A stretch of DNA of 48,949 nucleotides, taken from the sequence record OM632672.1. One strand, written 5' to 3'. The DNA is from Escherichia phage BEU51. The position numbers and the translations under genes were made by a program. Of the stretch, positions 10,608 through 15,682 are shown in pieces; position 1 is the first letter of the stretch, and each line of letters opens with the position of its first letter. The notes beneath the pieces were generated by a model that saw only the letters and a list, made by a program, of their open reading frames with translations, was not told the origin of the DNA and did not search any database.

Positions 10608-10814
10608 ATGTTTAAGTTTTTAGACCTTATCTGGGCAGTCATTTTGCTGGTTGCTACAGGCTTTGTATATGGCTTCTTGCTCCCATCAATGATGTCTGCT
10701 TTAGACAGCATCATTGTTGTTATGGGCTTGATAGTCTGTATTGTGTGGCCTCTTATCGTAGGCCGTATCGTTTATCTTACAGTTAAGAAAAGGATGAGAA
10801 GAAAACATGTATAA
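10608..10814 (+). CDS. small membrane protein (two predicted TM helices)
   Basis: ATG at 10608 downstream of the terminator; the track start at 10572 would read through the hairpin; two hydrophobic stretches and a basic C-terminus. Confidence 0.55.
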   Translation: MFKFLDLIWAVILLVATGFVYGFLLPSMMSALDSIIVVMGLIVCIVWPLIVGRIVYLTVKKRMRRKHV

Positions 10815-11643
10815 GTACATTGCAGTAGCAATTGCAGGGCTAATCATTGCTCTAAGTTTAACGAGCTGCTATGACCGAGTTGAACCAGGTAATGTAGGTA
10901 TTATCGTTAACCGTCTCGGTGAAGATAAAGGCGTGGAAAATGAGGTTAAAGGTGTAGGCCGTTACTGGCTCACTTGGAATGAAGAACTTTATACATTCCC
11001 AACCTTTAAGCAGATGAAGACCTATGATGGTCTGTTCTACTTCCAACTGTCTGATGGTACTCAGATAGGCCACCAGATGGCTATCAGCTATAAAGTGAAC
11101 CCTACTAAGGTAACTAATATCTTCCAGACGTATCGTAAGGGAGTTAATGAAATTACCGAGCAGGATTTACGCCAACGTATTGCTGATGTACTTAACAGAC
11201 AGGGTAACCTGATTAACACTGATACATTTATTGATGGTGGTAAATCTAAGCTACTAGATAGTGTCACTGACACAATCCGTAAAGAGATGGAACCAGTGGG
11301 GATTGATATTATTGCTATCTCCTGGATTGGTGCTCCTGAATACCCTGATAACGTTAAACGTGCCATTAATGCCAAAGTAGAAGCTACTCAGAAAACTCTG
11401 CAACGTGAGCAAGAGATTCAACAACGTGTAGCTGAAGCTAATATGGAACGTGAACAAGCTAAGGGTGTAGCTGATGCTATTCTGATTAAAGCTAAAGCAG
11501 AGGCTGATGCTATTCGTTTACGTGGTGAAGCACTCACCGAGAATCCAAATGTAATGCAACTGGAAGCTATTAATAAGTGGAATGGTACATTACCTACCAC
11601 AATGATTCCTGGGGCTACTACACCTTTCGTTAATGTGAAATAA
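10807..11643 (+). CDS. SPFH/band-7 (HflC/prohibitin-like) domain lipoprotein
   Basis: N-terminal signal with lipobox LTSC; VEPGNVGIIVNRLG start and Ala/Glu-rich C-terminus (KAKAEADAIRLRGEALTENPNVMQLEAINKW) typical of SPFH proteins. Confidence 0.7.
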   Translation: MYKYIAVAIAGLIIALSLTSCYDRVEPGNVGIIVNRLGEDKGVENEVKGVGRYWLTWNEELYTFPTFKQMKTYDGLFYFQLSDGTQIGHQMAISYKVNPTKVTNIFQTYRKGVNEITEQDLRQRIADVLNRQGNLINTDTFIDGGKSKLLDSVTDTIRKEMEPVGIDIIAISWIGAPEYPDNVKRAINAKVEATQKTLQREQEIQQRVAEANMEREQAKGVADAILIKAKAEADAIRLRGEALTENPNVMQLEAINKWNGTLPTTMIPGATTPFVNVK

Positions 11644-11650
11644 CTAAGCA

Positions 11651-11679
11651 AACCCACCATTACGGTGGGTTTATTTTTT
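11651..11679 (+). terminator. rho-independent terminator
   Basis: AACCCACC-ATTAC-GGTGGGTT hairpin followed by ATTTTTT. Confidence 0.75.
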
Positions 11680-11931: not shown

Positions 11932-12288
11932 ATGGCTCAAGAAAAGAATCGTCGTCAGACACTTATCGAACGTATTCAGGCCAGAATCAAATTACAGGAC
12001 TTAGGCTATACCGTTAATGGTCAGCCTAGCCTCTGTCACATCTGGACTGGTTCACATTCAGGTAATGGACGCGGTGGGCAATATGGCAGGATTTCCGTGA
12101 ATGGAGTTACCTCTGCAACTCACATTATTGCCTATACCCATTATCATGGTTATATCCCCAATAAGATGCAAGTAGACCATCTCTGTAATAATCGTCTGTG
12201 CTGTAACCCTGAACATCTTGAATTGGTTACTCACCAAGAGAACCAGAGAAGAAGGGCTAAGCGTTCTAAATCTAAAGGAAATAAATAA
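11932..12288 (+). CDS. HNH homing-type endonuclease
   Basis: VDHLCNNRLCCNPEHLELVTHQEN is a classic HNH motif (H..N...CC.NP.HL....N). Confidence 0.8.
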   Translation: MAQEKNRRQTLIERIQARIKLQDLGYTVNGQPSLCHIWTGSHSGNGRGGQYGRISVNGVTSATHIIAYTHYHGYIPNKMQVDHLCNNRLCCNPEHLELVTHQENQRRRAKRSKSKGNK

Positions 12289-12488: not shown

Positions 12489-13547
12489 ATGGCTAGTATT
12501 GATTCTATTGCCGTATGTAATCCACGGCAGGTACGTAAATTTGTTGAACACTGTATCCGTTCAGGATTGGTTCCATTTATCACTTCATCTCCTGGTATGG
12601 GTAAATCTGCAATTGTTCATCAGATTGCAGAAGACTTTGGCCTGAAACTGATTGACCATCGTCTGTCTACTTCAGCACCAGAAGACCTGTCAGGTCTGCC
12701 TCGTTTTAAAGAAAATGGTCGTGCTGAATTTGCTCCATTTGACGAGCTATTCCCACTGGAAGGGGATACTGTACCTGAAGGATTTAATGGCTGGCTTCTC
12801 TTTCTCGATGAGTTTAACTCTGCTCGTAAAGAGATTCAGGCTGCTGCTTATAAATTGGTACTCGACCGTATGACTGGTCAGAAGAAGCTACATCCTTATG
12901 TAGCTATCGTATGTGCTGGTAACAAAGCAACTGACCGTGCCATTACTAATAACCTGTCTACAGCTATGCAATCACGTCTTATTCATCTGGAAATGGAGAC
13001 TGATTTTGATGTCTTTATGGAAGATGTAGCTATCCCTAACAAATGGGATGAGCGTGTAATTGCATTCCTGAATGCTAACCCAAATAAACTGAATGATTTT
13101 GAACCAGACCATCAAGAGAAGACTTTCTGTTGTTCTCGTACATGGGAGTTCGTTAACAAGATTGTTTCCATTCTCCCACCGGGACCGATTGATAGTGAAA
13201 TGACTCTGCTATTAGCAGGCACTATCACCTCTGGTGTAGCAACATCATTCGTCCAGTTTACTCAGGTCTATAGCAACATGGTGTCTTTGAATGAGATTTT
13301 GGATAATCCTAAGAAAGCTCGTATGCCTGAAGACAATAACCTGTTGTGGGCTGTAGTCACTTCACTGATTAACAATACTGACGAAGATAATCATTCGAAA
13401 ATCTTTGATTACGTTGAACGTATGCCATTTACGTTCAAGGTTTTGTACTACCGTTCCGTAGGTAGTCTGGTTCCAGCTTTGGTTAAATTACCGAACTGGC
13501 GTGTTGCTGCAATCACATTATCTAAATACGTTCATGGTTCCAATTAA
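12489..13547 (+). CDS. AAA+ ATPase, MoxR-like
   Basis: Walker A SSPGMGKSA and Walker B LLFLDEFN; followed by a VWA partner gene as in MoxR-VWA pairs. Confidence 0.75.
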   Translation: MASIDSIAVCNPRQVRKFVEHCIRSGLVPFITSSPGMGKSAIVHQIAEDFGLKLIDHRLSTSAPEDLSGLPRFKENGRAEFAPFDELFPLEGDTVPEGFNGWLLFLDEFNSARKEIQAAAYKLVLDRMTGQKKLHPYVAIVCAGNKATDRAITNNLSTAMQSRLIHLEMETDFDVFMEDVAIPNKWDERVIAFLNANPNKLNDFEPDHQEKTFCCSRTWEFVNKIVSILPPGPIDSEMTLLLAGTITSGVATSFVQFTQVYSNMVSLNEILDNPKKARMPEDNNLLWAVVTSLINNTDEDNHSKIFDYVERMPFTFKVLYYRSVGSLVPALVKLPNWRVAAITLSKYVHGSN

Positions 13548-13713
13548 CAAGAAAGGAGTTACAGACCTCCTGTATGTTGCTGGCTTTAACGGTGAAAAAA
13601 TTACCGTATATGCCCCAAGTCTGGCTGCTGCTAAACAAAAGGCAGTTGAATACTTTCGTCCAAAGAAACGTGTAGCCCATACCATTTGGGTTCATCTCGC
13701 AGAGGAAAACTGA
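13534..13713 (+). CDS. hypothetical small protein (59 aa)
   Basis: Internal ATG of track ORF 13501..13713; no clear RBS. Confidence 0.3.
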   Translation: MVPINKKGVTDLLYVAGFNGEKITVYAPSLAAAKQKAVEYFRPKKRVAHTIWVHLAEEN

Positions 13714-13714
13714 T

Positions 13715-14857
13715 ATGTCCATGACAGATGCTCAATTAACCCGTGAATATGACAGATGTCAGGCTAAAGCCTTTATGGGCAAAACTGCTGCATTCTTTGG
13801 TTCACTGTTATGTTCTCTGAAGTTCCGTTGGGTAAAAGATGGCTGTGATACAGCACAAACCGATGGTGAGCATCTCGAATGGAATCCTGATTGGTTTGAG
13901 AGTCTATTACCTGAATCTCGTGTAACAGTACTCATGCATGAACTATGGCATGTCGGCTTACTGCATTCTGTTCGTATGGGTTCTCGTGACCCAGAAGTAT
14001 GGAATTATGCCTGTGATATTTATATCAACAATCAGCTTATTCAGGATGGCTACAGCTTTATAGGAATCGAAAATTGCTGGAAAGACTCTAAGTATGCTGG
14101 TTGGGCTGAAGAACAAATCTATGATGACCTCATGAGCAAACAGATACGTCCTCCTAAAGCATCAGGTGCTTTTGGGGCTGGCTCAGGTGGTGACATGAAA
14201 CCTTCCACTTCGAAGGCTAGTCAGGTAAATATTGTCAATAATGTAGTAAGAGCCATGCACCAACAGAAACTATCTGGTGGTTCTTTGCCTGGGGTATTAC
14301 CTGGAAAAATGGAAGAAGTTATTACTCAATTCCTGAAACCAGTAGTACCGTGGCAGGTCTTACTTGAACGCTTCTTCAATGACCTGCAAGAAACTTACTA
14401 CTCATGGCAACGGCCTAATCGTAGATACCCTGATATGTACCTACCATCTCCTATGGATGATGACGGTAGACTGGAACATCTGGCTTATTTCCTCGATACA
14501 TCTGGCTCCATTAAACCTAAAGATGCTTTACGCTTTAGCTCTGAAGTGGCCTATGTAAAAGAGAAATACCAGCCTCAGAAGATGACTCTAGTTCAGTTCA
14601 CTACAGAGATTGTAGATGAACAAGTCATTGAAGATGGTGATAAGTTTACTGATGTCACTATCAAAGGACGGGGTGGTACTAGTCTGGTTCCTGTACGTGA
14701 GTGGATTATTAAGCATAAGCCTACTGCTGCCATTATCTTTACTGACTTAGAAGTCAGACCGATGGAGCCATTGCCATTTGACATTCCTGTCATATGGGTA
14801 GTTATTCGTAACCCTGGTGCACAAGTTCCATTTGGGAAAGTTATTAACATTACATGA
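13715..14857 (+). CDS. VWA-domain protein with N-terminal HExxH metallopeptidase-like domain (DUF2201-type)
   Basis: HELWH zinc-binding-like motif in the N-terminal half; FLDTSGS (MIDAS D.SGS) in the C-terminal half; start overlaps the upstream stop. Confidence 0.7.
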   Translation: MSMTDAQLTREYDRCQAKAFMGKTAAFFGSLLCSLKFRWVKDGCDTAQTDGEHLEWNPDWFESLLPESRVTVLMHELWHVGLLHSVRMGSRDPEVWNYACDIYINNQLIQDGYSFIGIENCWKDSKYAGWAEEQIYDDLMSKQIRPPKASGAFGAGSGGDMKPSTSKASQVNIVNNVVRAMHQQKLSGGSLPGVLPGKMEEVITQFLKPVVPWQVLLERFFNDLQETYYSWQRPNRRYPDMYLPSPMDDDGRLEHLAYFLDTSGSIKPKDALRFSSEVAYVKEKYQPQKMTLVQFTTEIVDEQVIEDGDKFTDVTIKGRGGTSLVPVREWIIKHKPTAAIIFTDLEVRPMEPLPFDIPVIWVVIRNPGAQVPFGKVINIT

Positions 14858-15659: not shown

Positions 15660-15682
15660 GCCCACTTTATGTGGGCTTTTTT
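15660..15682 (+). terminator. rho-independent terminator
   Basis: GCCCAC-TTTAT-GTGGGC followed by TTTTTT. Confidence 0.7.

Follow-up and report, generated by a model that had tools for sequence, protein, structure and literature searches.

A MoxR-clade ATPase and its HExxH-VWA partner in the core genome of N4-like phages: a candidate ATP-dependent peptidase or remodelling module

A paired ATPase and HExxH-VWA protein in phage BEU51

[quoted passage not shown] The folds of the ATPase and of the VWA domain, the intact catalytic motifs and the near-obligate pairing of the two genes are shown here. What might such a pair do in a virulent phage? The proposal developed here, to which we give an even chance, is that gp24 and gp25 act together as a split, substrate-specific ATP-dependent peptidase or remodeller in the middle phase of infection. 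The product of a small gene between them, gp24.5, probably joins this machine.

The pair itself is known and already catalogued, and its domain make-up is no new discovery. The window corresponds to an Enquatrovirus, and over the 3-kb region around the pair its identity is 100% with phage BEU5 and 97.9% with coliphage N4. The N4 GenBank record lists the same two open reading frames as gp24 ("similar to S. coel. protein 1") and gp25 ("protein 2"), flanked by gp23 and the dCTP deaminase gp26. The order gp23-gp24-gp25-dCTP deaminase is kept between the window and N4, which identifies the genes as orthologues of Schitoviridae core genes. Published comparisons count both gp24 (AAA ATPase) and gp25 (vWFA domain) in the 14-gene core of N4-like phages, give their function as "unknown" and group them with the middle transcripts (PMC4193335, PMC2784036, PMC7650795); their annotation as AAA ATPase and vWFA protein dates from the 2000s. 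An initial annotation of the window, made from the sequence alone, had placed two adjacent genes here and called their role in a lytic phage unclear. Both gene boundaries hold (Table 1), the motifs that it quoted (SSPGMGKS, LLFLDE, HELWH and DTSGS) all translate as written, and its assessment of the role agrees with the genome descriptions and core-gene lists found in the literature.

The gp24 ATPase

To which branch of the AAA+ proteins does gp24 belong? Its residues, its fold and its family profile predict that it is an active AAA+ motor and that it lies in the MoxR/midasin/dynein (helix-2-insert) branch. The protein matches the ATPase family phrog_1297 at 1.3e-136 and has 2,643 homologues in the protein database. 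When its AlphaFold2 (AF2) model (predicted local distance difference test, pLDDT, 83) was compared with known structures by Foldseek, NorQ came first (E 3.5e-8), followed by CbbQ, dynein AAA modules, Rea1/midasin and the MoxR protein CHU_0153. A family profile built with bacterial homologues found midasin at 4e-39 overall (5.5e-13 for the best single AAA domain), NorQ at 2.9e-7 and CbbQ at 5.9e-6. Together with the invariant catalytic residues described below, these matches uphold the MoxR-type assignment of the initial annotation.

Among 37 phage and bacterial members of the family, AAA_5 was matched at E<=1e-3 by 29, AAA_3 (the MoxR model) by 10 and bpMoxR by five, and a Desulfobacter homologue exceeds the cut-offs of both AAA_5 and AAA_3. 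The gp24 protein of the window scores 19.3 bits against AAA_5, just below the gathering cut-off of 22. Because this direct score is sub-threshold, the clade assignment rests on the fold and the family profile. A search of the PDB with the gp24 sequence by itself gave only noise and no direct sequence relative, and the gp25 sequence likewise gave noise. Narrow phage-only profiles reached midasin at E 0.0037 for gp24 and no structure for gp25; for both proteins, PDB profiles became informative only after bacterial homologues had been added.

The catalytic centre of gp24 is strictly conserved across the 37 homologues (Table 1). Walker A, the Walker B aspartate and the sensor-1 asparagine are all present, and R163 is a candidate arginine finger by virtue of its position; R217 is likewise invariant (37/37). 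Between beta2 and beta3, at the site of the clade's helix-2 insert, lies an insert of 42 residues that begins with a conserved PxDLxGLP motif, in which P64, D66, G69, L70 and P71 are each kept in at least 34 of the 37 members and which aligns with 'RFSTPEEVFG' of RavA. A short strand (132-134) precedes beta4. Confidence in the model is low here (pLDDT 52-59 for the beta2-beta3 insert), so that the hairpin inserts, a defining feature of the clade, are no more than consistent with the assignment.

The gp25 protein

The partner protein matches phrog_1314 at 2.1e-136 and consists of two Pfam families in tandem, DUF2201_N (2.6e-86; 290 bits against a cut-off of 23.2) and DUF2201 (1.4e-46; 158 bits against 26.4). 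It has 1,133 homologues in the protein database, and the wider family comprises 21,504 cluster representatives at 50% identity (E<=1e-3). The AF2 model (pLDDT 81) contains a helical N-terminal domain, a disordered linker rich in Gly, Ser and Pro, and a small C-terminal alpha/beta domain. Conservation was assessed in 36 homologues, which represent N4-like, jumbo and rV5-like phage lineages, cyanophages and numerous bacterial phyla.

The C-terminal domain has a Rossmann-like VWA fold that is structurally near the VWA domains of NorD, midasin and BchD, which are known to dock on rings of this type, and the VWA domain of CLCA1 is the top Foldseek match of the model (E 2.4e-4). All the residues of the adhesion site that depends on a metal ion (MIDAS), namely D261, S263, S265, T322 and D344, are invariant (36/36). 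The earlier description of gp25 as an N-terminal HELWH motif followed by a VWA domain was therefore correct. Neither a non-MoxR clade for the ATPase nor a partner without a VWA fold was found.

In the N-terminal domain, H75, E76 and H79 of the HExxH motif occur in every one of the 36 members and H84 in 34. A second conserved motif follows, and Y136 is also invariant. A PDB profile search with this domain returned zincins only, at marginal scores: minigluzincin MJ1213 (0.009), an HtpX homologue (0.017), an M48 peptidase (0.023) and BepA. D101 is the likely candidate for the third zinc ligand, H84 being the other candidate. Inteins in two gp25 homologues, a mini-intein of ~150 aa in P0244 and one of ~320 aa in P0249, split the protein exactly at A99|C100 within the invariant WNxA|CDxxIN (nucleotides ~14009-14014 in the window). 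Inteins usually occupy the catalytic motifs of important proteins, and their placement supports the view that the A99|C100-D101 motif is part of the active site.

The small gene between the pair

The initial annotation had noted a possible open reading frame of 59 amino acids (aa) between gp24 and gp25, and it proves to be a real, syntenically conserved gene, judging from sequence comparison. The protein matches phrog_19202 at 1.5e-33, and tblastn finds relatives with 42-56% identity in schitoviruses of Achromobacter, Pseudomonas, Erwinia and Burkholderia. In phages Axy04, Zuri and Kuerle the gene is annotated at the identical position, with the ATPase and DUF2201 genes on either side, and an alignment of the family has 18 invariant columns. 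It is missing from both reference annotations of N4 (EF056009 and NC_008720). The genes are tightly packed: the 59-aa frame shares 14 nt with the end of gp24, and its stop lies 1 nt ahead of the gp25 ATG. No relative of known structure or family was detectable for gp24.5.

Distribution of the gene pair

How general is the association of the two genes? In IMG/VR, a gp24-like gene lies upstream of the gp25 homologue and on the same strand in 71 of the 72 loci with enough upstream sequence, and within 700 bp in 56 of those 71. Among 80 loci from bacterial genome records, the ATPase gene is also upstream in nearly every one that has enough flanking sequence. The pairing of the ATPase and DUF2201 genes is thus near-obligate. 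Homologues of gp25 occur in 669 phage records, which include Schitoviridae, jumbo phages (K64-1, SHEFM2K, Bacillus phage G and others), cyanophage S-TIM5 and rV5-like phages; the ATPase gene adjoins that of the gp25 homologue in S-TIM5 and K64-1. In S-TIM5 a gene for an Hsp20 small heat-shock protein directly precedes the pair, which hints at a protein-quality-control context.

The annotated contexts of the bacterial copies are mostly conjugative plasmids or regions resembling integrative and conjugative elements (ICEs), with neighbours such as PRTRC genes, type IV secretion genes, TraN (DUF4138), RadC, ParB, a DUF3991-toprim primase, DUF4942 and zeta toxin. A minority have ordinary or defence-island neighbours. 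About 63 of the bacterial loci carry a third conserved gene, which encodes a DUF3150-like protein of ~300 aa and mostly lies between the ATPase and DUF2201 genes; it is found just downstream in three Bacteroidota loci (L032, L050 and L065) and in locus L041, and sometimes upstream elsewhere. The window has no DUF3150-like gene, no solved relative of the bacterial protein was found, and no relationship between it and gp24.5 was detectable. Other viral lineages fill the middle slot differently, with a 218-aa family in 16 contigs and with 61-aa and 150-aa genes in six contigs each, none of which has a Pfam match.

Several records that are not labelled as phage contain N4-like sequence. A chromosome contig of Mesorhizobium yinganensis (contig2, positions 434974-448110 of 727 kb) has a gp24-like gene, a gp25-like gene (46% identity), a dCTP deaminase gene and a thymidylate synthase gene; this N4-like synteny could stem from the integration of a schitovirus-like element or from a chimeric assembly. 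The 69-kb contig JANQNF010000027, from a metagenome-assembled genome labelled 'archaeon', looks like an N4-like phage and encodes a gp25 relative at 67% identity. The Acinetobacter baumannii 'plasmid' pRBH2-3 (75 kb, circular) also looks like an N4-like phage, with a phage-type RNA polymerase gene near the pair.

Proposed mechanism and alternatives

How might gp24 and gp25 work together? In the proposed mechanism, gp24 would form a hexameric AAA+ ring motor of the MoxR clade, and gp25 would dock on this ring through its C-terminal VWA domain, like NorD on NorQ or, in midasin, the MIDAS domain on its ring. The MIDAS metal site of gp25 would capture an acidic residue of a specific target protein, and ATP hydrolysis by gp24 would pull or twist the flexible linker of gp25. 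The HExxH domain would then cleave the captured protein, or would be switched on to cleave it, while the middle gene slot would supply lineage-specific third components. The module, which virulent phages and conjugative elements share, would be ancient. We infer the physical complex of gp24 with gp25, the peptidase activity and the order of events; the ATPase, MIDAS and HExxH centres are all under strict conservation. The model of docking and linker remodelling is drawn by analogy with NorQ-NorD; the N-terminal domain, linker and VWA domain of gp25 mirror NorD. In the NorQ-NorD system the VWA protein is seated on the ring and extends a finger into the pore, and its linker between the N-terminal and VWA domains is remodelled by the motor (PMC13036017).

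A number of observations weigh against this proposal. The zincin matches of the gp25 N-terminal domain span E values of 0.009-0.8 and are marginal throughout, and fold searches with the full-length gp25 model returned only VWA domains, with no zincin among the top matches, since the VWA domain dominated these searches. A finger insertion of the NorD type was not identified in the gp25 VWA domain. In an rV5-like phage the ATPase and gp25-homologue genes are 3.6 kb apart and divergent, and in Bacillus phage G no gp24-like gene lies within 4 kb of the gp25 homologue. To our knowledge, the MoxR-VWA pairs that have been characterised are remodelling or metal-insertion chaperones, not proteases. Literature searches on DUF2201, DUF3150, N4 gp24/gp25 and VWA proteins of Schitoviridae turned up genome descriptions only, and no experiment on gp24, gp25 or another DUF2201 protein was found; in a CRISPRi-ART paper N4 appears only with rIIA/rIIB knock-downs, and in two preprints on phage transposon sequencing no mention of Schitoviridae or N4-like phages was found.

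Does the pair need to cut anything at all? The main alternative, a pure chaperone or metal insertase like NorQ-NorD, CbbQ-CbbO and CobS-CobT, is on the whole doubtful: the pair would remodel a phage or host enzyme, maybe a neighbour in nucleotide metabolism, without cleaving it, and the HExxH domain would be a metal-holding or structural module. The characterised MoxR-VWA pairs known to us behave in this way (PMC13036017, PMC7159879). NorQ and CbbQ are the nearest solved structures to gp24, which also has a weak match to the phage CobS family phrog_249 (9.8e-7). Possible clients are close by: in four schitovirus subfamilies and in the Mesorhizobium element the gene after gp25 encodes a dCTP deaminase, ThyX is near, and the S-TIM5 pair sits between the genes for Hsp20 and thymidylate synthase. 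However, conjugative elements hold the same cassette without such enzymes in the vicinity, and we know of no metal-insertion factor that dCTP deaminase or ThyX needs. The catalytic glutamate of HExxH is present in 36 of 36 homologues, which mere metal-holding does not require. A related alternative refines the peptidase/remodeller proposal rather than replacing it: the pair would be an establishment or counter-defence device that removes or remodels a host defence or stress factor as the foreign DNA starts replicating. This is rather unlikely in our estimate. The residence of bacterial copies in conjugative plasmid or ICE-like regions, the presence of the family in such unrelated lineages as Schitoviridae, jumbo phages, rV5-like phages and a cyanophage, and the fast-changing, lineage-specific genes between the pair all fit it. 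On the other hand, anti-defence genes are usually accessory, whereas this pair is core in all N4-like phages whatever their host, and Desulfobacter copies have ordinary metabolic neighbours. Transcription is also middle and not early (PMC4193335). Core status and middle-phase expression thus argue against a typical accessory anti-defence gene. PADLOC found no match for gp24, gp24.5 or gp25, although its library covers defence and not anti-defence. That the pair is itself a defence system was rejected, given its core status in a virulent phage and the absence of a PADLOC match.

Two further explanations concern quite different functions. A role in virion or tail assembly has a cited viral precedent in Acidianus two-tailed virus (ATV), whose MoxR-type p618 and VWA protein p892 form a pair tied to tail development (PMC7159879). 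It is nevertheless very improbable here, because the pair consists of middle genes in a replication and nucleotide-metabolism region, outside the late structural block, and because conjugative plasmids carry the pair yet build no virions; a prohead or tail chaperone was rejected on these two grounds. Is gp25 then an HNH endonuclease, as it is called in RefSeq NC_008720, PHROG 1314 and many other phage records? This label is almost certainly wrong and is refuted at the level of sequence. No HNH-family Pfam model matched gp25 at E<=0.01, in a search that recovered HNH_3 in the neighbouring gp22 at 8.6e-20 as a positive control, and DUF2201_N and DUF2201 together account for the full length of gp25. 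Homologues that bear inteins may be the source of the name. Other gp25 homologues are labelled 'anti-sigma factor' or 'metallo-phosphohydrolase', and no such domain is detectable.

If the peptidase/remodeller proposal is extended to its most general form, the cassette would represent a hitherto unrecognised class of ATP-dependent protease, which many mobile elements carry and in which a MoxR-type ring works with a VWA-zincin that is adaptor and enzyme at once. At establishment, virulent phages and conjugative plasmids would employ it against a particular host protein or a regulator of their own, which it would destroy or reshape, with the middle gene (gp24.5, the 218-aa family or DUF3150) setting the target or gating the activity. 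This broader version is speculative, and we regard it as improbable.

Genomic context

The positions of the genes, motifs and hairpins are collected in Table 1. The two terminator-like hairpins bracket the block from gp21 to gp27, which suggests a single transcription unit on the basis of sequence features. Terminator-like sites are more frequent in the region than expected from shuffled sequences (seven observed and 2.7 expected), while a scan for sigma-70 promoters found eight, below the 11.8 expected by chance. An Rfam search of the region recovered no known RNA family, and an NCBIfam search gave no matches.

Table 1. Features of the gp24-gp25 locus in the window (positions in the 48,949-nucleotide record; residue numbers refer to the encoded protein)
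Feature	Position	Strand	Evidence or remarks
Terminator-like hairpin 5' of the gp21-gp27 block, bidirectional	11650-11672	+	9-bp stem, then T-run
gp24, MoxR-clade AAA+ ATPase (352 aa)	12489-13547	+	phrog_1297, AF2 model, Foldseek, family profile
gp24, Walker A SSPGMGKS (residues 33-40)	12585-12608	+	G38, K39 and S/T40 each 37/37
gp24, conserved LIDHRLSTSAPEDLSGLP motif at start of long beta2-beta3 insert (candidate helix-2 insert/pore loop)	12648-12701	+	
gp24, Walker B LLFLDE (residues 103-108)	12795-12812	+	D107 37/37; position 108 E in 28, D in 9
gp24, sensor-1 Asn (A143-G-N145) to candidate arginine finger R163	12915-12980	+	N145 and R163 each 37/37
gp24.5, conserved 59-aa protein	13534-13713	+	phrog_19202, tblastn, synteny
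gp25 (380 aa), with zincin-like domain, linker and VWA domain	13715-14857	+	Pfam DUF2201_N and DUF2201, AF2 model
gp25, HELWHVGLLH: HExxH (HELWH, 13937-13951) and H84	13937-13966	+	in predicted helix 66-81
gp25, NYACDIYIN motif (N97, A99, C100, D101, N105)	14003-14029	+	N97, A99, D101 and N105 in 36/36
gp25, Gly/Ser/Pro-rich flexible linker (residues ~141-170)	14135-14224	+	pLDDT ~52; length varies among homologues
gp25, minimal C-terminal VWA domain (residues 256-380, ~125 aa)	14480-14857	+	DTSGS at 14495-14509
Terminator-like hairpin 3' of gp27	15660-15676	+	GC-rich 6-bp stem, then TTTTTT

Two genes upstream of the pair have features of their own. The gp22 gene (11932-12288, plus strand), two genes upstream of the pair, encodes a true HNH endonuclease, with a His-Me finger zinc-loop match in addition to HNH_3, and is probably a homing endonuclease. 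The gp20 gene (10807-11643, plus strand) encodes a protein of the SPFH/Band 7 type (1.7e-23) whose N-terminus resembles that of a lipoprotein (..LTSC..), a membrane-scaffold type of protein that is unusual in a phage.

Significance

The result would not surprise a specialist, but the genes are real and probably important. They are two of the ~14 genes common to all N4-like phages and are among the few of these without an assigned function. N4 is a tractable E. coli phage and a classic model in which a module as well defined as this one is directly testable; since the gp25 family is large and extends to conjugative elements and to unrelated groups of phages, one experiment in this host system would annotate thousands of genes. 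Should targeted, ATP-driven proteolysis be confirmed for the pair, the small set of AAA+ proteases would gain a new design, and a virus-encoded MoxR-VWA pair would have its first biochemical role. We recommend that the N4 reference annotation include the 59-aa gene and that the widespread "HNH endonuclease" label of gp25 be removed.

Comparison with known systems

By the criteria applied here, the pair belongs to the systems that combine a MoxR-clade AAA+ ATPase with a VWA-MIDAS partner. Which of these systems does it resemble most closely? NorQ-NorD and CbbQ-CbbO, the 'CGN' group of MoxR proteins, share several features with it: NorQ is the best structural match of gp24 (template modelling score ~0.6 on the target), the genes are adjacent, and the partner protein is built from an N-terminal domain and, joined to it by a linker, a VWA domain whose MIDAS is of the DxSxS-T-D form. 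In contrast, sequence identity is only 15-18%, NorD has no HExxH domain, gp24 has ~90 extra C-terminal residues, and the gp25 VWA domain is minimal, with no pore-inserting finger identified. The targets of these systems, the nitric oxide reductase cNOR and Rubisco, are irrelevant to a phage. Midasin (Rea1) is the best sequence-profile match of the gp24 family, and its MIDAS domain, seated on the ring, takes hold of an acidic residue in the ligand. However, midasin is a single giant eukaryotic polypeptide that includes the MIDAS domain as well as six AAA domains, acts in ribosome biogenesis and has no peptidase domain.

The E. coli systems RavA-ViaA and YehL-YehM-YehP also unite a MoxR ATPase with a VWA partner, and YehLMP has a third gene in between. 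They are not orthologues of gp24 and gp25: there is no zincin domain, and hhalign comparisons with the single sequences gave E values of 0.005 for RavA, 0.037 for YehL and 4e-4 for the YehP VWA domain, with probabilities of 1-35%. FtsH, an AAA+ protein fused to an M41 HExxH peptidase, and Wss1/Spartan with Cdc48/p97 offer an analogy of working principle only, in that a zincin is coupled to an AAA+ motor and proteolysis thereby becomes selective and driven by ATP. These differ in that their motors are AAA+ proteins of the classical clade, fused to the peptidase or recruited through other motifs, with no VWA/MIDAS adaptor. CLCA1-type proteins are self-cleaving and have a zincin and a VWA domain in one chain, and CLCA1 supplies the top Foldseek match noted above. 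They are eukaryotic, secreted and without an AAA+ partner, and the likeness of the zincin domains is one of domain content.

Other virus-encoded combinations, phage CobS/CobT and ATV p618/p892, belong to other subfamilies and are not known to have an HExxH domain. They resemble gp24/gp25 as earlier instances of a virus-encoded MoxR-type ATPase with a VWA protein (PMC7159879), and in the case of CobS through the weak match to phrog_249. In the MoxR-vWA ternary conflict systems, a core of MoxR and vWA proteins is accompanied by a variable third component (Kaur et al. 2020, PMC7159879), which the variable slot between gp24/gp25-type genes parallels. By contrast, the third genes found here are DUF3150-like or encode proteins of 59 aa or 218 aa, and not VMAP, iSTAND, FtsH or beta-propeller proteins, the vWA domain of gp25 is fused to a zincin-like domain, and PADLOC gave no match. 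Thus, gp24/gp25 is not one of the described MoxR-vWA conflict systems. What sets the pair apart within the wider group of MoxR-VWA systems is the fused HExxH domain, the minimal VWA domain and the variable third gene.

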